Shown one piece after another: positions 1 through 7,959 of a DNA stretch of 7,959 nucleotides. The position numbers were made by a program, and so were the translations under genes. This stretch comes from a virus. Taxonomy: Duplodnaviria > Heunggongvirae > Uroviricota > Caudoviricetes. Below the pieces are notes generated by a model. The model saw nothing but the letters and a program-made list of their open reading frames with translations, was not told where the DNA came from and ran no database searches. Positions within the stretch are counted from its first letter, which is position 1. Every line of letters begins with the position of its first letter. Location: the IMG/VR virus record IMGVR_UViG_2728369554_000019; one strand, given 5' to 3'.

Positions 1-1002
1 TTACCCTCTATTGTCAAAAGGGTTCAATTCAACAGCAGCCTCTAAATGACCTGGAGCAAAATGCGCATAACGCATAGTCATTTTTATATCGCTATGCCCC
101 AGTATTTTTTGCAACACAAGAATATTTCCGCCCCGCATCATAAAATGACTGGCAAACGTGTGACGTAGCACATGAGTTAATTGCCCATCAGGAAGCTCGA
201 TCTTCGCTCTCTTAATTGCAGCGTCAAAAGCCTCATAACATGGTGAAAATAGCGCTCCTCGTTTTTTGGGAAGCATAGCCTGCAATTGAGGTGAAATCGG
301 TACAGTGCGGTTCTTCTTTCCTTTAGTTTTAACAAATGTGATTCGACCGGGCAGTACTTGAGATTGCTTTAATCCTTCTGCTTCACTCCACCGAGCACCA
401 GTCGCAAGCCCAATACGGACAACAACCCCCAAATCTTTATTCCGTGACTCATCACACGCAATCAGAAGGCGTTCAATCTCATCTACATACAGAAACGCCA
501 GTTCCTTTTCTTCCTCACGAAACTTGCGAATACCAGTCAGGGGGTTTTCACCAGACCACTCCCCAAGGCGCTTCAGTTCGGCAAAAACAGCATGTAGATA
601 TGACTGCTCGCGATTAACGGTTGCTTCACTAAGTTTTTTCTTCCCCTTGGGATTCCATTCTCCTGATAGCCTTCTTTCCCGATAAGTGGCAAACATATTT
701 TTGTCAAACTGAGAAGCAAATGGATCTCCCAGCCTGGAACAAATCGCCTCAAGTTTGACTTTGCGCTCTGCACCAGAGGACAAGGTTTTACCGTACATCT
801 CAAACCAACGAGCAATCAACTCAGAAAGACGAGGACCAGAACCATCTTGAAACTCGTCTCCAACTCTACTATTCATTAAACGGCGCTCATAAGAGAGCGC
901 CTCACTTTTTGTCGCAAACTGTTTACGAATGCGTTTTCCCGATGCCCCGTAGGGATAACATTCGCAAAGCCATTTACCTGATGGAATCTTACGAACCGAC
1001 AT
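1..1002 (-). CDS. int: Tyrosine recombinase / phage integrase, P2/186 family, complete (333 aa)
   Basis: Translation shows the P2-family N-terminus (MSVRKIPSGKWLCECYPYGASGKRIRKQFATKSEAL) and tyrosine-recombinase catalytic boxes (GARWSEA; HVLRHTFASHFMMRGGNILVLQKILGH; MTMRYAH with the catalytic Tyr). Start ATG at 1000-1002 and stop TAA at 1-3 on the minus strand. Family assignment is from memory of 186/HP1/P2 integrases, not from a search. Confidence 0.9.
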   Translation of the reverse strand: MSVRKIPSGKWLCECYPYGASGKRIRKQFATKSEALSYERRLMNSRVGDEFQDGSGPRLSELIARWFEMYGKTLSSGAERKVKLEAICSRLGDPFASQFDKNMFATYRERRLSGEWNPKGKKKLSEATVNREQSYLHAVFAELKRLGEWSGENPLTGIRKFREEEKELAFLYVDEIERLLIACDESRNKDLGVVVRIGLATGARWSEAEGLKQSQVLPGRITFVKTKGKKNRTVPISPQLQAMLPKKRGALFSPCYEAFDAAIKRAKIELPDGQLTHVLRHTFASHFMMRGGNILVLQKILGHSDIKMTMRYAHFAPGHLEAAVELNPFDNRG

Positions 1003-2050: not shown

Positions 2051-2455
2051 TCACCTACCCTTAGTTTCGTTATAGTCACGACCAGCGATACGGTTATTAC
2101 CACCAGAAATATTTAACTCACGTCCTGATGGCTGAGTTTCCTTTTCACTGATCGCACCTTTTAAAGCCCCAATCACCGCGTTTTTCACATCTAACGAAGC
2201 TGCTCGAAAGCGAGTAATCAACTCCTGCTCATCATCGTTATAAGTTTCAGGTGAGTGAATTCCCAACACAACATACTGAACATCAAGGCCAAAACGAGAC
2301 AGCGCTGCCAAATACGCAGCATCAGGAAAGCTATCTCCTTTCTCATATCTAAGCTGAGTTAGCTTTTTGACTCCACCAATGTCGCTCATGGCAACTTGAC
2401 TAAGTCCCAATCTTTCCCTTTCCTCACGCAACCGCTGACCAATATCATTTTTCAT
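2051..2455 (-). CDS. HTH XRE/Cro-CI-family transcriptional regulator, putative prophage immunity repressor (134 aa)
   Basis: N-terminal helix-turn-helix signature (IGQRLREERERLGLSQVAMSDIGGVKKLTQLRYEKG). It is the first gene of the leftward operon ending in int and is adjacent to the switch region, which is the position of C/cI in P2/186-type phages. Confidence 0.8.
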   Translation of the reverse strand: MKNDIGQRLREERERLGLSQVAMSDIGGVKKLTQLRYEKGDSFPDAAYLAALSRFGLDVQYVVLGIHSPETYNDDEQELITRFRAASLDVKNAVIGALKGAISEKETQPSGRELNISGGNNRIAGRDYNETKGR

Positions 2456-2978: not shown

Positions 2979-3586
2979 ATGAAAAAAAACGCTAATAATC
3001 CATACTCCAAATTTCGTAATGGCGTAGAACGCCATGTACACCACGTCGCTACCAGTGCATCACGTAGTAACAGTCGCTATAACCTGAACGAGACGCACGC
3101 AACACCGGATGGCCACGCTGTAAAACAAATCGGCGAGCATGCCTGGCTGATTGAGAAAGCTGGAATCGTGGTCCACAAATGCCTACGCAATCCGTTTACC
3201 GGAAACCGCATTTTTGCATTGAACTGCGGCGACAATCACTTCGGGCAGGATTTCACATTATACGAAGCACTTCGCACGGTTGATCGTCTGCTTCGCGGGC
3301 AAAGTTTTATTAAACAGNNNNNNNNNNNNNNNNNNNNNNNNNNNNNNNNNNNNNNNNNNNNNNNNNNNNNNNNNNNNNNNNNNNNNNNNNNNNNNNNNNN
3401 NNNNNNNNNNNNNACGCAGCTACTTACGTTTATCTGAACGGTACGCGCCTGACTGTGGAGCTTCCGTACCAGACCGTACGAGAAATCATTAGCGAAGCTG
3501 AAAAGGCACGTCAGGTTAATGGCGATGAACCCTATATCGAAATTATTTGTATGGATTCAGAAGCTGAAATTCAGAAAGCAGATTAA
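2979..3586 (+). CDS. Hypothetical early-region protein interrupted by a 96-N gap; N-terminal part 2979..3317, C-terminal part 3416..3586
   Basis: Open frame from ATG 2979 up to the N-run. After the gap a clean coding frame (AATYVYLNGTRLTVELPYQTVREIISEAEKARQVNGDEPYIEIICMDSEAEIQKAD) ends with TAA at 3584-3586. The two parts are in different frames across the N-run, so the gap length is not the true length. Confidence 0.4.
3318..3413. other. Assembly gap or masked region (96 N)
   Basis: Run of N inside an apparent coding region. Confidence 0.9.
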
Positions 3587-4043: not shown

Positions 4044-4365
4044 ATGCACGCAAAAGAAGAAGGTATCATCAGAGCACTGAAAGAAATNNNNNNNNNNNNN
4101 NNNNNNNNNNNNNNNNNNNNNNNNNNNNNNNNNNNNNNNNNNNNNNNNNNNNNNNNNNNNNNNNNNNNNNNNNNNNNNNNNNNNNNNNNNNNNNNNNNNN
4201 NNNNNNNNNNNNNNNNNNNNNNNNNNNNNNNNNNNNNNNNNNNNNNNNNNNNNNNNNNNNNNNNNNNNNNNNNNNNNNNNNNNAATTCTGACAAATCTCC
4301 GCCTGATAGAACGCTCTCAAGCTGTATTCATTGATGACGCGCAACGTGCCGTATTTAACGCATAG
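4044..4365 (+). CDS. Hypothetical early-region protein interrupted by a 196-N gap; N-terminal part 4044..4087, C-terminal part 4285..4365
   Basis: SD GGAG 8 nt upstream of ATG 4044 (MHAKEEGIIRALKE...). After the gap a coding-like frame (ILTNLRLIERSQAVFIDDAQRAVFNA) ends with TAG at 4363-4365. Frames do not match across the gap. Confidence 0.35.
4088..4283. other. Assembly gap or masked region (196 N)
   Basis: Run of N inside an apparent coding region. Confidence 0.9.
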
Positions 4366-4592: not shown

Positions 4593-4855
4593 CCATTCTG
4601 GACTACATCGCTACTCATCCGGGGTGTAGCGGCGGAGAGATCGCCGCAGCACTGAATACTCCAACCACAGCCATTAATGCTGAGTTACGCCAACTTTGGC
4701 GCGGCGGCTTAGTCATCAGAACAAACCGCAGCACAGGTGGTCGCGCTCGCAAAACTGGAGGCCAGGCTTCTTACCACGTAAACCCGATGCCGTTCGGGTG
4801 TAGCAATCCACTTACTCACATGTTTAACCAGCTACTGAAGGAAGCCAGAACATGA
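4589..4855 (+). CDS. Hypothetical protein (88 aa), possible winged-helix DNA-binding fold
   Basis: SD CAGGAG 8 nt upstream. ATGA overlap at both ends. Segment SGGEIAAALNTPTTAINAELRQLWRGGLV is HTH-like; this is a weak inference. Confidence 0.5.
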   Translation: MTILDYIATHPGCSGGEIAAALNTPTTAINAELRQLWRGGLVIRTNRSTGGRARKTGGQASYHVNPMPFGCSNPLTHMFNQLLKEART

Positions 4856-5151
4856 GCACCATCAACCACCAGAAGCTACGCGAACTGGCATTTGCCCTGC
4901 AACGAATGGCAACGCCTCAAAAATTACTGGCATTTCGCGCAATACTCTCGCCGTCTGCTGTGCTGGCACTGCTGGATCAGCTGGAGCACGCCAGAACCAC
5001 GGCTCCTGCCATTCGCCTCACGCTCCATCATGAAATCGCTGATTTCTGCGCAACGCTGGGGGCACCTGGCGAACCGGAAACGCCGGAAGCAATGCAGCAA
5101 GAGCTGCTGCAACGCATCGATAACGTTTTTGATTTTTTTCTGAACCAGTAA
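4852..5151 (+). CDS. Hypothetical protein (99 aa)
   Basis: SD GAAGGAAG upstream; translationally coupled to the previous gene. Followed by a structured noncoding region. Confidence 0.5.
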   Translation: MSTINHQKLRELAFALQRMATPQKLLAFRAILSPSAVLALLDQLEHARTTAPAIRLTLHHEIADFCATLGAPGEPETPEAMQQELLQRIDNVFDFFLNQ

Positions 5152-5273
5152 GAAACCAGAACATGCACACACAAAAAAACCGCTTGCCATGCCTCAATCG
5201 GTCAGGTTACATTTCCGCTGCACCTCATAAAACGGGTGCCGGGATTCTCAACCCGATACAGAGCAAAGCGCAT

Positions 5274-5296
5274 AACCGCGCAAGCGGTTTTTTTGT
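5274..5296 (+). terminator. Candidate rho-independent terminator
   Basis: Stem ACCGC / GCGGT (5275-5279 and 5284-5288) with GNRA tetraloop GCAA, followed by a run of eight T (5288-5295). Confidence 0.5.
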
Positions 5297-5473
5297 GCGT
5301 ACTGTATTGCCACGTCTTTTTCGCGTCAGAATTATGGCGGGGCGTACGGGGCCGACTTCGGTCGGGCCGGATTCTTTGCTCTCCGGTGTTGAGAACCCTG
5401 TACGTCTCGCCACCCCGAGATTCTCAACTCTGGATGGTGAGTTATTTCTATCACCGAGCAAAGAGGCCACACC

Positions 5474-5704
5474 ATGGCAGACCGCAAACAGCACCGCGCT
5501 ATCGCGGAGCGTCGTCACATCCAGACTGAAATCAACCACAGACTTTCCCGCGCATCACGCGTCGCGCAAATCATGCACATCAATATGCTGCATGAGCGCA
5601 GCCACGCACTATCAAACATTTATTCCGCCTCTGTTTTCAGCTATCTGGCGGATGATCTGCACGAGCTTCAACAGCTCATCCAGCAGCAAAACAAACTCCA
5701 TTAA
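5474..5704 (+). CDS. Hypothetical small basic protein (76 aa)
   Basis: SD AAGAGG about 8 nt upstream. Charged, helical-looking composition. Preferred over the overlapping 205-aa ORF 5163..5780, which runs through the terminator structures. Confidence 0.45.
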   Translation: MADRKQHRAIAERRHIQTEINHRLSRASRVAQIMHINMLHERSHALSNIYSASVFSYLADDLHELQQLIQQQNKLH

Positions 5705-5776
5705 TTCCTGTTCCGGGCCTTTCCTGCACCTTGCGGCGGGAGGCCTTCGCACATCTGTAACAAGAGGATTGCCGCA

Positions 5777-6142
5777 ATGATTCTCGCCAACGACTTTCTT
5801 GAATACCTGCTCAACACAGAGCGTGATCTTGCCGCTCGCGTACGTGATCGTTATGACATGTATCTGAAATCCCTGCCTGTACCGCAGCTCGCTGACGGAA
5901 AAATTGTTATTGATGGTCGCTACATGATTGACAGCCACGAGGGGAATTACAGGCTTTACCGCATTGAAGCCGGCACCCCGTCCGTTATTGGCATTTACCA
6001 GCGCCCATCCTCTGCGATCGTCGATGTGATTGCCGACAGCATCCGCATCACACACCACCATGCCGACACAGAAGACACTGTGCTGGAGATTCAGCGGCTG
6101 GCTACCGTTTGCCGTGACACTCTGAACGGAATGACGAAGTAA
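5777..6142 (+). CDS. Hypothetical protein (121 aa) immediately upstream of the replication gene
   Basis: SD AAGAGGA 8 nt upstream. Stop is 6 nt before the gpA-like start. A second, 5'-truncated copy lies at 6538..6858. Confidence 0.6.
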   Translation: MILANDFLEYLLNTERDLAARVRDRYDMYLKSLPVPQLADGKIVIDGRYMIDSHEGNYRLYRIEAGTPSVIGIYQRPSSAIVDVIADSIRITHHHADTEDTVLEIQRLATVCRDTLNGMTK

Positions 6143-6148
6143 ATCAGT

Positions 6149-6526
6149 ATGACGACAGAGTACATCAGGGACTGGCAACAACCGCGCCACACAGTAGGAC
6201 GTGAAGGAACGGAGATCCCCGCACCTGAATCCGCACTTTCCTCCTGGCTGGATGCCTACCGGGCAGAGAACGAACGCCGCCAGGAAATGGCTGATGCGGC
6301 GTTCTCCGCCACACCGCTGGGCAACCTGATTAATAAAAGCCTGGACGCACAGGAAAAACAGGACAAAACCATCACACTGGCCAGAGAAGCCAGAAAACAG
6401 GCACGCGGCGCGGTGGATGAAGCCATGGCCTCGCTGCGCCTGCTGCCATCCTATCTGCGCGATCCGCTTATTCGCCACCTCTCCTTCCTGCGCAAAAAAC
6501 AGGAAGCCGATCGCCGGAAAGGCAAA
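6149..6526 (+). CDS. N-terminal 126 codons of a gpA-like replication initiation gene (copy 1), cut off by the 10-N gap
   Basis: Translation MTTEYIRDWQQPRH...RKKQEADRRKGK is near-identical to the first 126 aa of the CDS at 6865..7959. The frame runs into the N-run at 6527. Confidence 0.5.
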
Positions 6527-6536
6527 NNNNNNNNNN
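6527..6536. other. 10-N scaffold gap at the junction of two about 95% identical direct repeat copies
   Basis: Run of 10 N. Sequence 5822..6526 is repeated at 6538..7242. Confidence 0.9.
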
Positions 6537-6537
6537 A

Positions 6538-6858
6538 CGTGATCTTGCCGCTCGCGTGCGTGATCGTTATGACATGTACCTGAAATCCCTGCCTGTACCG
6601 CAGCTCGCTGACGGAAAGATTGTTATTGATGGTCGCTACATGATTGACAGCCACGAGGGAAATTACAGGCTTTACCGCATTGAAGGTGGCACCCCGTCCG
6701 TTATTGGCATTTACCAGCGCCCATCCTCTGCAATCGTCGATGTGATTGCCGACAGCATCCGCATCACACATCGCCATGCCGACACAGAAGACACCGTGCT
6801 GGAAATTCAGCGGCTGGCTACAGTCTGCCGCGACACCCTGAATGGCATGACGAAGTAA
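6538..6858 (+). CDS. Second copy of the 121-aa hypothetical gene, 5'-truncated at the gap (lacks the first ~15 codons)
   Basis: In-frame translation from 6538 (RDLAARVRDRYDMYLKSLPVPQ...GMTK) matches residues 16-121 of the 5777..6142 product with a few substitutions. The M at 6556 in the ORF track is an internal GTG. Confidence 0.5.
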   Translation, partial: RDLAARVRDRYDMYLKSLPVPQLADGKIVIDGRYMIDSHEGNYRLYRIEGGTPSVIGIYQRPSSAIVDVIADSIRITHRHADTEDTVLEIQRLATVCRDTLNGMTK

Positions 6859-6864
6859 ATCACT

Positions 6865-7959
6865 ATGACGGCAGAGTACATCAGGGACTGGCAACAACCG
6901 CGCCACGCAGTGGGGCGTGAAGGAACGGGGATCCCCGCTCCTGAATCCGCGCTTTCCTCCTGGCTGGATGCCTACCGGGTAGAGAACGAGCGCCGCCAGG
7001 AAATGGCTGATGCGGCGTTCTCCGCCACGCCGCTGGGCAACCTGATTAATAAAAACCTGGACGCACAGGAAAAACAGGACAAAACCATCACACTGGCAGG
7101 AGACGCCAGAAAACAGGCACGCGGCGCGGTGGATGAAGCCATGGCCTCGCTGCGCCTGCTGCCGTCCTATCTGCGCGATCCGCTTATTCGCCACCTCTCC
7201 TTCCTGCGCAAAAAACAGGAAGCCGATCGCCGGAAAGGCAAAAAGAGCTGGCAGGCGGAACGCTATGCACGCGGAACCCTGCGCAAAATATTCGAACGTC
7301 TGGATCGCACTGACGGACACTGGCTGACACCGGGTTATCGCTCCCTTGCCGGACGCGAACGCCTGGACGATTTGCTTTACCTGCCGCAGCTCAACAAACA
7401 CCAGATACAGACGCTGGCCACCATGACGGCGGCGATGTTCAGCAGCACCTTCGAAAAACTCTGCGATGGATTTGGCGCGACCGATGGCGAACTGACCATG
7501 GATGTAACGCTGAAGGCGTATCAGATGCTGGCCCGCATGGCGTTACACCTGCACATCATGCCTCCACATTATGACGCACTGACAACAGATAAAGACCGGA
7601 GGAACGAACCGGACACGGAGCTGCTGCCGGGCGCAATCCTTCGCCTGACCTGTGCTGAATGGTGGAAACGCAAACTGTGGCTGTTACGTTGCGAGTGGAG
7701 AGAAGAACAACTCCGCGCCGCCTGTCTGGTTTCCAGAAAAACATCGCCCTATCTGAGCCAGGACGCATTAAGCGAGTTTCGCGCACAGCGCGAGAAAACA
7801 CGCGATTTCCTGAAAAGTTTCATGCTGGAAAACGAAGACGGGTTCACGATTGATCTCGAGACAGTGTATTACGCGGGAGTAAGTAACCCGGTTCACCGTA
7901 AGGCAGAAATGATGGCCACCATGAAGGGGCTGGAACTTCTGGCCGAAGCCCGTGGCGAC
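6865..7959 (+). CDS. Replication initiation protein, P2/186 gpA-like (rolling-circle replication endonuclease); 5' complete, 3' partial, runs off the window
   Basis: ATG at 6865; 365 codons to the window end with no stop. Position as the last large gene of the early operon and sequence character recall gpA (Phage_GPA family), but this is from memory, not a search. Absent from the ORF track, presumably because it has no in-window stop. Confidence 0.6.
   Translation, partial: MTAEYIRDWQQPRHAVGREGTGIPAPESALSSWLDAYRVENERRQEMADAAFSATPLGNLINKNLDAQEKQDKTITLAGDARKQARGAVDEAMASLRLLPSYLRDPLIRHLSFLRKKQEADRRKGKKSWQAERYARGTLRKIFERLDRTDGHWLTPGYRSLAGRERLDDLLYLPQLNKHQIQTLATMTAAMFSSTFEKLCDGFGATDGELTMDVTLKAYQMLARMALHLHIMPPHYDALTTDKDRRNEPDTELLPGAILRLTCAEWWKRKLWLLRCEWREEQLRAACLVSRKTSPYLSQDALSEFRAQREKTRDFLKSFMLENEDGFTIDLETVYYAGVSNPVHRKAEMMATMKGLELLAEARGD

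Follow-up and report, generated by a model that had tools for sequence, protein, structure and literature searches.

A probable IsrK-C4 RNA immunity module ahead of an epsilon-like gene in a P88-like prophage

Background

Immunity modules built from a short target-bearing RNA and an antisense RNA are already known as seqA-CI-seqC in P4, c4 in P1/P7 and IsrK-STnc1160 in Gifsy-1; the module described here belongs to that kind and lies in a P88-like (Xuanwuvirus) prophage. The characterised relatives differ in their mode of action, which combines a translational block with Rho polarity in P1, depends on termination in P4, and involves trans-activation by IsrK in Gifsy-1. Among relatives of P1/P7, differences in the paired a and b sites reportedly define heteroimmunity. 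IsrK and C4 are structural homologues of seqA and CI of P4, the pair has been named the IsrK-C4 immunity system, and the anti-immunity CA RNA of N15 is reported to be structurally similar (PMC3632133). CI and C4 are substrates of RNase P (PMC5499578). In Gifsy-1, IsrK binds Hfq and trans-activates its own read-through mRNA, and a processed RNA, STnc1160, is found downstream of it (PMC4825925). According to PMC10111431, the constitutive promoter, CI and seqA lie within the P4 gene eta, and termination is prevented when eta is translated from an upstream promoter. The basic picture drawn from P1, P4 and Gifsy-1 is unchanged by the P88-like module.

Results and Discussion

Location and distribution of the module

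The window, i.e., the whole stretch of DNA that was analysed (7,959 nucleotides, IMG/VR record IMGVR_UViG_2728369554_000019), contains a structured region between accessory early genes and the epsilon-like gene and gpA replication genes, where a previous sequence-only reading had correctly placed it. We identify this region, with good confidence, as an IsrK-C4 RNA immunity module, in which a terminated decoy RNA (IsrK) is followed by a C4 antisense RNA directed against an epsilon-like anti-repressor gene. The flanking genes are all on the + strand, as are the following predicted features:

5163-5780, +: long open reading frame (ORF) of 205 codons from the ORF list, positional analogue of P4 eta
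5167-5187, +: left arm of the long inverted repeat, coinciding with long-ORF codons 2-9 and promoter positions -53 to -33
5184-5213, +: putative sigma-70 promoter of IsrK (promoter scan)
5220-5294, +: IsrK small RNA, the seqA region in P4 terms (Rfam RF01394)
5220-5239, +: IsrK hairpin 1
5240-5255, +: IsrK hairpin 2, with target copy a1 (5242-5252) in its loop
5260-5268, +: IsrK linker bearing target copy b1
5274-5289 and 5288-5294, +: hairpin and U7 of the IsrK intrinsic terminator (terminator scan)
5280-5300, +: right arm of the long inverted repeat; terminator loop, 3' half of the stem, U-tract and 6 bases beyond
5330-5417, +: C4-type antisense RNA of the P4 CI / P1 c4 class (Rfam RF01695)
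5335-5351 with 5396-5412, +: C4 outer stem
5352-5365, +: C4 hairpin 1, with a UUCG loop (CCGAC-TTCG-GTCGG)
5366-5387, +: C4 hairpin 2, whose loop is recognition element b' (5372-5382)
5388-5398, +: C4 recognition element a', single-stranded
5418-5428, +: downstream target a2, near-copy of a1 and complementary to a' (a':a2, -11.4 kcal/mol)
5456-5466, +: downstream target b2, complementary to b' (10 bp, -14.3 kcal/mol)
5474-5704, +: regulated gene, encoding a 76-aa homologue of the P4 epsilon 'derepression' protein (PF25738, phrog_3688)
5777-6142, +: next gene of the operon (phrog_3237)
from 6149, +: gpA-type replication gene (PF05840 in the P88 orthologue)

The module is carried by a complete P2-like phage that encodes a protein repressor (2051-2455) and a homologue of Cox; therefore, by analogy with the described systems, the RNA module would be a second layer of immunity rather than the sole one, situated in the early operon of a P88-like (P2-related) prophage upstream of gpA. 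About a fifth of complete Escherichia coli genomes (1178/5426) carry the module. The isrK and C4 pair precedes the epsilon gene in both P4 and P88, precedes genes of the Rha/Ant type in Stx phages and in ASU11, and is present in a P1-like Punavirus as well; some phages have two tandem modules. The RefSeq and GenBank records inspected annotate no RNA gene at the module, and one record draws a minus-strand 'hypothetical protein' across it. A literature search of incomplete coverage found no paper on the module in P88-like phages.

The diversity of the relatives was drawn from IMG/VR and from look-ups of exact protein matches; a scan of genome contigs with the epsilon-like protein as query yielded two loci only. 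Covariation was assessed in 55 distinct relatives that are closely related (mean column identity 83%), so the counts of open frames and of compensatory cells given below overstate the number of independent events.

IsrK, C4 and the epsilon-like gene

The sequence-only reading had proposed a small structured RNA, and the + strand in fact holds two, both above the Rfam gathering score. The first is a full-length match to the isrK model (RF01394; 63.1 bits, gathering score 50; E 4.8e-12; 5220-5294, +), with a predicted length of 75 nt and a fold of -24.2 kcal/mol (z = -3.1 relative to shuffles); its stems are 99-100% paired among the 55 relatives, with one compensatory pair. The GNRA hairpin reported on the + strand is there (AACCGC-GCAA-GCGGTT) and was recognized by the terminator scan, but the T run that follows is one of seven, not eight. 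Upstream, the putative promoter consists of a -35 hexamer TTGCCA (5184-5189), an 18-nt spacer and a -10 hexamer TACATT (5208-5213), with a predicted start at approximately 5220; relatives keep the TTGC that opens the -35 hexamer and the -10 region GGTTACAnTT without exception, the spacer varies by sub-lineage, and the isrK match begins 7 nt past the -10 hexamer. Promoters are found at the equivalent position in P4, Stx phages and ASU11. IsrK is thus predicted to have its own promoter directly 5' and an intrinsic terminator at its 3' end.

The second RNA, which begins 35 nt after IsrK and is 88 nt long, matches the C4 model (RF01695) over positions 1-87 of 87, scoring 78.5 bits (gathering score, 45; E 1.4e-14), and its minimum free energy (MFE) structure (-47.6 kcal/mol, z = -4.9) is identical to the Rfam consensus. 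The UUCG-tetraloop hairpin that had been picked out from the sequence is the first internal hairpin of C4; compensatory changes affect four of its five pairs among relatives, and two pairs of the outer stem, which is 99.9% paired and followed by a conserved GCCACCC tail. Over the 55 relatives, pairing within IsrK and within C4, taken together, is retained at 98.1%, eight pairs are changed on both sides, and none of 500 shuffles reached the observed score. A dedicated C4 promoter, TTGCCA-17-AATTAT (5307-5335), was considered and rejected: its -35 hexamer is TCGCCA in many relatives, and its would-be -10 hexamer AATTAT belongs to the conserved 5' end of C4.

IsrK and C4 are the only Rfam matches in the region, and the minus strand has none. 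ARAGORN predicts no tRNA or tmRNA. A retron msr-msd, which might be suspected from inverted repeats around approximately 90 nt, was rejected, there being no reverse transcriptase nearby and no Rfam family besides isrK and C4.

The protein encoded directly after the RNA elements matches Pfam PF25738 (E 2.9e-8) and phrog_3688 (E 5e-45) and is 34% identical to P4 epsilon (E 4e-10), which itself matches PF25738 (E 9e-51). It is presumed from these similarities to be an anti-repressor, and the genes under control would accordingly comprise anti-repressor and lytic replication functions, the epsilon-like gene first and then gpA.

Pairing among six antisense sites

The recognition elements a' and b' of C4 can pair with sites on either side of it: with a1 and b1 in IsrK (a1:a', -19.8 kcal/mol; b1:b', -12.5 kcal/mol) and with a2 and b2 downstream. 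The b':b2 duplex (5456-5465) overlaps the Shine-Dalgarno sequence AAGAGG (5461-5466) of the epsilon-like gene, which starts with the ATG at 5474. The 8-bp inverted repeat with a 25-nt spacer that had been taken for regulatory sites of the downstream module is part of this system: GTTGAGAA (5388-5395) lies in a', TTCTCAAC (5421-5428) in the facing target a2, and the two are exact complements 25 nt apart. In the MFE structure of the read-through RNA, the C4 loops are paired in cis with a2 and b2.

Covariation among related prophages, which had been suggested as a check, bears out the IsrK and C4 pairs and the six antisense sites alike. In the 55 relatives, b1:b' is 99.6% paired with both sides changed in seven of nine pairs, b2:b' is 96.6% paired with both sides changed in six of nine, a1:a' has seven pairs changed on both sides, and the core pairs of a2:a' each occur as 3-4 pair types; control pairings with the partner slid by 1-3 columns are only 39-56% paired. 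The six sites co-vary three ways, giving 12 a-types, 19 b-types and 31 combinations, and the mean duplex energy of C4 with its target is -19.7 kcal/mol for cognate versus -6.5 kcal/mol for non-cognate pairs. The a and b sites may constitute a large, naturally reassorting set of orthogonal antisense/target pairs, comprising 12 x 19 types or more.

The long inverted repeat

The perfect 15-nt inverted repeat flanking 92 nt, from which the sequence-only reading had started, is genuine and longer than claimed: AAAAAAACCGCTTGC (5173-5187) and GCAAGCGGTTTTTTT (5280-5294) are exact reverse complements with 92 nt between them, and the repeat extends to 18 nt without mismatch (5170-5187 / 5280-5297) or 21 nt with one mismatch (5167-5187 / 5280-5300). 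This is far beyond chance: when 5163-5470 was dinucleotide-shuffled 300 times, perfect inverted repeats had a mean longest length of 7.4 nt and never passed 11 nt. Within the left arm fall the A-tract of the IsrK promoter (-47 to -41) and bases 1-4 of its -35 hexamer. Its core, AAAAACCGCT, is invariant in the 55 unique P88-like modules; it was seen only in P88-like phages, with no counterpart in P4, Stx phages or ASU11.

One role for this repeat, which we consider possible though on balance improbable, is that of an RNA antiterminator dependent on the origin of the transcript. In transcripts initiated upstream, the left arm might conceivably capture the loop of the terminator together with the 3' half of its stem and the U-tract, resulting in read-through; transcripts from the internal promoter, having no left arm, would on this tentative scheme terminate as IsrK. 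When the left arm is included, the MFE structure exchanges the terminator hairpin for the long helix (-54.4 kcal/mol, z = -6.8), and folding of successive prefixes pairs the nascent 3' half with the left arm at once in 42 of 55 modules and in all 55 by the time 10 more nucleotides have been added. Every P88-like module can form the helix (88.7% of cells paired), and two compensatory pairs distinguish E. coli from Salmonella types; the helix is absent from the modules of P4, Stx phages and ASU11, which sit outside a P2-type early operon. However, this support is thermodynamic, and a local hairpin is normally favoured kinetically; the terminator loop faces a mismatch in 39 of 55 relatives; the covariation of the helix amounts to one lineage split; and the left arm is constrained also as promoter (-35 hexamer and A-tract) and as codons 2-9 of the long ORF. 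Because a translating ribosome would melt the helix, the helix may duplicate or serve another step, as an RNase III site or by occluding the AUG at 5163.

It is very unlikely that the arms act as the bidirectional intrinsic terminator first proposed, insulating early genes from the replication module, with any RNA of the region being approximately 100 nt long and bounded by the arms. The 18-nt perfect repeat is well past chance, the + strand hairpin with its U7 is a good terminator, and a run of seven T residues does follow the left arm on the minus strand; but the minus-strand hairpin (-8.2 kcal/mol, z = +1.2) is equalled or bettered by 183 of 200 shuffles and gave no hit in the terminator scan, so that only the + strand qualifies. 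A minus-strand small RNA was likewise rejected, with a fold no better than shuffles and no Rfam match on that strand. All flanking genes being on the + strand, there is no convergent transcription to terminate, and the replication genes downstream, in the same orientation, must be reached by read-through. Furthermore, the + strand terminator belongs to a recognized small RNA whose 5' end (5220) is downstream of the left arm; the left arm is not part of IsrK because it is upstream of both the IsrK promoter and the start, and an RNA of approximately 100 nt bounded by the two arms does not fit this arrangement.

The long open reading frame

The description of the region as noncoding was only partly right: besides the two RNA genes, an ORF in a conserved frame (5163-5780) crosses it. 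Its ATG (5163) is upstream of the internal promoter, just before the left arm; it spans IsrK, C4 and the targets and then the epsilon-like gene in the +1 frame of that gene, and its stop codon (TGA, 5778-5780) overlaps the ATG of the next gene (5777). Of 55 unique relatives, 51 keep the frame open throughout the module (the other two frames have 0-7 stops), an in-frame ATG stands 12 nt before AAAAACCGC (15 nt, P88 type) in many unrelated upstream contexts, and module lengths differ by multiples of three in all but 2 of the 49 modules first collected. Counted from the AUG at 5334, the frame is 144-154 codons long in 58 of the 63 unique sequences; its end is mostly an ATGA overlap, which recurs in several distinct contexts. 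Within the epsilon-like gene, all 12 of 12 valid representatives of less than 85% nucleotide identity are free of stops in the +1 frame, and for each of them the probability of an open frame under synonymous shuffling is 0.03-0.35.

The predicted ORF has the layout of eta in that it starts upstream of the internal promoter and spans the equivalents of seqA, CI and seqC; however, the epsilon-like gene (5474) is in another frame and is not nested as kil is in P4 eta, so the analogy is positional, not exact. The product has no significant similarity to P4 Eta by BLASTP (E 0.09), and its residues 16-108 match Pfam PF10554 (Phage_ASH) with E 0.0027 and 18.6 bits, under the 26-bit cutoff. One GenBank record labels the locus 'similar to ash family protein'. 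That the region simply encodes a 205-aa 'Ash family' or Eta-like protein, with incidental RNA structures, is scarcely credible despite the conserved frame and length class, the weak Phage_ASH match and the 'ash family' label, given three-way compensatory changes at sites up to 220 nt apart that a protein cannot explain, two RNA models far above threshold, the absence of significant similarity to P4 Eta, and a C-terminal two-thirds that is an out-of-frame reading of a gene with real homologues.

Proposed mechanism and its implications

We infer the IsrK promoter, the RNA ends, their processing, the repression and the anti-repressor activity by analogy with P1, P4 and Gifsy-1. On the IsrK-C4 interpretation, the internal promoter would yield mostly terminated IsrK in a lysogen, and some read-through transcript that RNase P may process at the 5' end of C4 to give a stable C4 RNA; C4 would pair with a2 and b2 and block translation of the anti-repressor; and the replication genes would be kept silent via polarity or termination. 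Silencing by C4 would extend to superinfecting phages of the same a/b type. The decoy sites in IsrK would present a second target for C4 in cis, and in trans they may titrate C4; therefore, the ratio of IsrK to C4 set by the terminator could tune the switch. As for transcripts from the early promoter, conservation of the long ORF and the precedent of P4 eta suggest that ribosomes would traverse the terminator, C4 and the targets, preventing termination and antisense pairing so that lytic transcription reaches the replication genes. The left arm may assist by pairing with the 3' half of the terminator and the U-tract, which is the least certain step.

A more speculative proposal, which we rate as doubtful, is that the P88-like module is a rewired version of the P4 type, combining an IsrK terminator whose use depends on transcript origin through the helix with an eta-like ORF that is not nested, features undescribed for P4, P1 or Gifsy-1. 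If so, the helix 5167-5187/5280-5300 would cause transcripts from the internal promoter to terminate and those of the early operon to read through, and ribosomes on the eta-like ORF, open over the +1 frame of epsilon, could carry lytic transcription to the replication genes.

Recognition of the module offers an explanation of how P88-like prophages may silence anti-repressor and replication genes by a second, RNA-based layer, and the variety of a/b types predicts that otherwise near-identical prophages fall into many heteroimmunity classes. The co-varying antisense/target pairs provide a natural test set for rules of RNA-RNA specificity and for orthogonal synthetic regulators. With its left arm and overlapping ORF, the module makes a simple system for examining how lytic transcripts override an embedded terminator and antisense RNA.

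Comparison with known systems

Functional analogues are immI of P22 (sar antisense RNA and ant) and the anti-immunity system of N15 (CA RNA), where silence of an anti-repressor in the lysogen depends on a small RNA; sar differs in being a cis-antisense transcript of a different family. P4 shares with the window a one-strand order of promoter, isrK-type RNA with a1 and b1, C4-type RNA with b' and a', and a2 and b2; a b2 site on the Shine-Dalgarno sequence; epsilon (PF25738) as the next real gene family; and a long ORF that starts upstream of the internal promoter, covers all RNA elements and reads isrK in the same register (8812-8168 in P4, 5163-5780 in the window). In P4, however, seqC is followed by kil (ATG 8365), in frame within eta, and then by epsilon, whereas here the gene after b2 is epsilon itself, over which the long ORF runs in the +1 frame as far as the next gene's ATG; the spacer between isrK and C4 is 107 nt in P4 and 35 nt here; the replication gene is alpha in P4 and of the gpA type of P2 here; and P4 has no complement of the left arm. 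Homology to P4 over the whole module was considered and rejected, since epsilon is all that the two share: no similarity links the 121-aa protein to P4 ORF151, and the replication protein is distinct from P4 alpha.

The immI region of P1/P7 (c4 - icd - ant) has a C4 RNA of the same family (RF01695), a single transcript on which a' and b' have a1 and b1 upstream and a2 and b2 downstream, a b2 located at the first ORF's ribosome site, and anti-repressor and lytic replication functions downstream. It differs in the regulated protein, Icd/Ant there and epsilon-like here; moreover, the upstream copy here is predicted to be a terminated small RNA with its own promoter.

Gifsy-1 (isrK - orf45 (STnc1160) - anrP) is a lambdoid phage in which orf45 has 45 codons and is coupled to anrP, whereas the corresponding frame here has approximately 148 codons and ends at the gene after epsilon. 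Trans-activation of the read-through mRNA by IsrK, which switches on the anti-repressor, has been demonstrated in Gifsy-1 (PMC4825925) and would be expected here by analogy. As is predicted here, Gifsy-1 has an IsrK of RF01394 transcribed from a promoter of its own up to a leaky terminator, and beyond it a processed RNA resembling C4 and an anti-repressor (PMC4825925). The counterpart of the first orf45 AUG is the AUG conserved in AAUUAUGG at the C4 5' end, which in the window (5334) lies in the frame of the long ORF.

Two small RNAs upstream of an epsilon-like gene

The window belongs to a P88-like prophage (Xuanwuvirus, P2-related), of which it is the early region. When it was scanned whole against Rfam, exactly two matches were obtained, both full-length, above the gathering score, on the plus strand and inside the region 5163-5470: an isrK RNA and a C4 antisense RNA. 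C4 carries the recognition elements a' and b', with target copies in IsrK (a1, b1) and downstream (a2, b2).

Features of the window in order of position
1-1002, minus strand: integrase, upstream of the region
2051-2455, minus strand: HTH repressor, upstream of the region
upstream of the region: Arc-like and Cox-like genes
4852-5151: Ead-like gene, last of the accessory early genes, upstream of the region
5163-5780, plus strand: long ORF of 205 codons, its ATG (5163) at the start of the region
5184-5213: promoter-like site (TTGCCA, 18-nt spacer, TACATT; promoter scan), ending 7 nt before the IsrK 5' end
5220-5294, plus strand: isrK (RF01394; Rfam, 63.1 bits)
5242-5252: a1, loop of IsrK hairpin 2, a near-copy of a2 (repeat finder)
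5260-5268: b1, in IsrK, complementary to b'
5330-5417, plus strand: C4 antisense RNA (RF01695; Rfam, 78.5 bits)
5372-5382: b', loop of C4 hairpin 2 (repeat finder)
5418-5428: a2, target downstream of C4 (repeat finder)
5456-5465: b2, complementary to b'
5474-5704, plus strand: 76-aa 'derepression protein' (epsilon-like; Pfam PF25738), downstream of the region
5777-6142: phrog_3237 gene, downstream of the 76-aa gene
after the phrog_3237 gene: gpA-type replication gene, start only

The b2 site overlaps the Shine-Dalgarno sequence AAGAGG (5461-5466) of the epsilon-like gene, whose product is homologous to P4 epsilon (34% identity over 50 amino acids, E 4e-10); P4 epsilon itself also matches PF25738. 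Both RNAs fold well below shuffles in energy (IsrK z = -3.1, C4 z = -4.9), and in the predicted minimum-free-energy (MFE) fold of the read-through RNA the C4 loops pair in cis with a2 and b2. Inspection of the alignment by eye shows that a conserved GGTGAG (5437-5442) immediately past a2 complements the outer stem of C4 on its 3' strand (5406-5411; CTCGCC in the window, CTCACC in many of the relatives). This points to another possible fold of the read-through RNA before processing, resembling the pair of conformers described for Gifsy-1.

Every element noted in a sequence-only reading of the region proved on re-checking to lie exactly where it had been placed. The right-arm plus-strand GNRA hairpin (AACCGC-GCAA-GCGGTT), also found by the terminator scan but followed by seven T rather than the eight claimed, forms the IsrK terminator; the UUCG hairpin (5352-5365), as described, corresponds to the first hairpin inside C4; and in the equally accurate GTTGAGAA-N25-TTCTCAAC (5388-5428), GTTGAGAA is the single-stranded C4 element a' and TTCTCAAC its downstream target a2. 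The anticipated small RNAs and regulatory sites were present, but not the bidirectional terminator: the hairpin proposed for the minus strand at the left arm is no more stable than shuffled sequence (z = +1.2) and is absent from the terminator scan.

Further downstream, direct copies of 705 nt (5822-6526 and 6538-7242), 95.3% identical and separated only by a 10-N gap (6527-6536), span part of the phrog_3237 gene and the gpA N-terminus; other N runs lie at 3318-3413 and 4088-4283. The duplication has the appearance of two diverged P88-like copies joined in scaffolding, or of an assembly artefact, and the minus-strand ORFs overlying it (5612-6478 and 6451-7401) are probably spurious.

Covariation among relatives

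Relatives were collected via the epsilon-like protein (80 IMG/VR loci, exact-protein look-ups and two genomes), via the promoter/IsrK pattern and from reference phages; 55 distinct P88-like modules were aligned and their pairs counted. The epsilon ORF of one IMG/VR contig (L110, near 14328-14652) is artificially extended because the contig ends in the Illumina adapter AGATCGGAAGAGCACACGT.

Covariation across related prophages, proposed as a check in the sequence-only reading, was found in the RNAs and in the recognition sites alike. Intramolecular IsrK and C4 positions are 98.1% paired, with eight compensatory pairs and a score reached by none of 500 shuffles. Variation falls mainly in the six recognition sites, where it is compensatory three ways: b1:b' is 99.6% paired, with both sides changed in 7 of 9 pairs; b2:b' is 96.6% paired, with both sides changed in 6 of 9; a1:a' has seven pairs with both sides changed; and the core pairs of a2:a' occur in 3-4 types each. 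Control alignments with the partner slid by 1-3 columns are only 39-56% paired. The a and b sites, both hypervariable, have been reassorted, 12 a' types and 19 b' types giving 31 combinations. Mean duplex energies are -19.7 kcal/mol for cognate versus -6.5 kcal/mol for non-cognate partners, a gap of about 13 kcal/mol. In the promoter, TTGC (the first four bases of the -35) and GGTTACAnTT (-10 region) are invariant, and the spacer differs between sub-lineages. Together, these comparisons argue strongly that the RNA-RNA contacts have a function and set specificity classes. Classes of this kind are known for P1 versus P7. The a and b sites represent a natural library of orthogonal antisense/target pairs.

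An open reading frame across the RNA genes

The region had been called noncoding; it does contain two RNA genes, but it is also crossed by the 205-codon ORF, whose frame is conserved. Among 55 relatives, 51 keep this frame open through the entire module, with 0-7 stops in the other two frames, and module lengths (316, 319, 322, 325 and 328 nt) differ in steps of three, the only exceptions being two sequences with altered homopolymer lengths. In many unrelated upstream contexts, AAAAACCGC is preceded at a distance of exactly 12 nt (15 nt in the P88 type) by an in-frame ATG, and homology between phages starts at this ATG. From the conserved AUG at the C4 5' end (5334), 58 of 63 unique sequences keep the frame open for 144-154 codons; the frame crosses epsilon in that gene's +1 frame, mostly ending as an ATGA overlap with the start of the next gene, in several different sequence contexts. 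The epsilon +1 frame is free of stops in 12 of 12 valid representatives below 85% nucleotide identity, with 1-5 stops in the +2 frame; in synonymous-codon shuffles it stays open with a probability of 0.03-0.35 per sequence. Real selection on the long-ORF frame is probable, and is rated no higher because the relatives are not independent.

Translations that cross isrK and C4 (window, 5163-5777; L085, 1458-2120; L082, 8168-8584) match Pfam PF10554 ('Phage_ASH'): E is 1.3e-18 for ASU11 (residues 16-107), 4.3e-16 for the old P4 'cI protein' and 0.0027 for the window ORF. The similarity of the long-ORF product to PF10554 and to P4 Eta is not significant at the protein level. At least part of this family may reflect conserved RNA genes, not a protein domain.

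The left arm of the inverted repeat

The long inverted repeat is stronger than the 15 nt first claimed: 18 nt are perfect (5170-5187 / 5280-5297), or 21 nt with one mismatch, and the longest perfect inverted repeat in 300 dinucleotide shuffles of the region never exceeded 11 nt. The left arm occurs in all P88-like modules, with an invariant core AAAAACCGCT:AGCGGTTTTT; it has no equivalent in the modules of P4, Stx phages and ASU11 (longest complement 4-6 nt).

The most economical reading, which we nevertheless hold only tentatively, is that the left arm acts as an antiterminator, such that terminator override would be set by the transcript start site. Folding is consistent with this: in the MFE structure of an upstream-initiated RNA the long helix displaces the terminator hairpin (z = -6.8), and in prefix folds of 42 of 55 modules the terminator 3' half, once made, pairs with the left arm. 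Outside A/T tracts, the E. coli type (CAC...GTG) and the Salmonella type (CACGTA...TACGTG) differ by two compensatory pairs, but these trace to one split between lineages, and a mismatch lies opposite the terminator loop in 39 of 55 relatives. Alternatively, the left arm may be an RNase III site, or may occlude the AUG at 5163. It doubles as codons 2-9 of the long ORF and as promoter positions -53 to -33, and its complementarity may be a by-product of overlapping constraints.

Distribution and annotation

The isrK and C4 pair lies upstream of every epsilon homologue examined, including those of P88 and P4, and of Rha/Ant-type genes in Stx phages, ASU11 and many lambdoid phages. It is also present in the P1-like Punavirus JL22 (2374-2452 and 2497-2584), located between pacB and an icd-sized ORF plus a Roi-type gene, adjoining the c1/coi region. 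Some relatives carry tandem complete IsrK-C4-epsilon modules (L092, 947-1422 and from 1776; L095/L097, 947-1428 and 1559-2040; L106, 3588-3906 and 4267-4582), with a/b types differing between copies and each module opening with the same ATG and left-arm block.

Of 5426 complete E. coli genomes, 1178 carry the module. None of the GenBank and RefSeq records inspected annotates an RNA gene at it: P88 (KP063541) has a minus-strand 'hypothetical protein' over isrK/C4 (5033-5221), and RefSeq NZ_CP018323 leaves the stretch (5498-5819) empty. A literature search found no papers on an IsrK-C4 module in P88-like phages.

Proposed mechanism and comparison with known systems

In the lysogen, the internal promoter would yield mainly IsrK and some read-through RNA, processed to C4, which would cover the ribosome site of the epsilon-like gene, a presumed anti-repressor, and silence the downstream operon, in superinfecting phages of the same type as well; IsrK, with its decoy targets, could titrate C4. 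During lytic growth, transcripts from the early promoter would traverse the module under translation of the long ORF, perhaps aided by the left arm, and this translation would abolish both termination and antisense pairing.

Several systems of this design have been described. P4 seqA and CI RNA are structural homologues of IsrK and C4, and the 'IsrK-C4 immunity system' has similar forms in P1, P7, N15 and some lambdoid prophages (Barquist et al., PMC3632133); RNase P substrates include CI and C4 (PMC5499578). In Gifsy-1, a fraction of isrK transcripts passes the terminator into orf45-anrP, where anrP encodes an anti-repressor; short IsrK acting in trans on the read-through RNA permits its translation, and a processed downstream RNA, STnc1160, is complementary to IsrK (Hershko-Shalev et al., PMC4825925). 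The first AUG of orf45 is the counterpart of the window AUG at 5334. In P4, the constitutive promoter lies within the eta ORF together with seqA and CI; RNAs started at the internal promoter undergo early termination and give CI, and full-length Eta, of which Kil is a nested short form, is translated only from the upstream late promoter, its translation preventing termination (PMC10111431). The equivalent P4 ORF (8812-8168) likewise starts upstream, before PLE, spans isrK, C4 and seqC, and reads isrK in the same register as the window ORF, a likeness that is positional; the P4 kil ATG (8365) is in frame with eta, whereas epsilon in the window is not nested in the long ORF. The window module, unannotated in the records inspected, belongs to a well-known class of systems and differs from its other members in two lineage-specific features.
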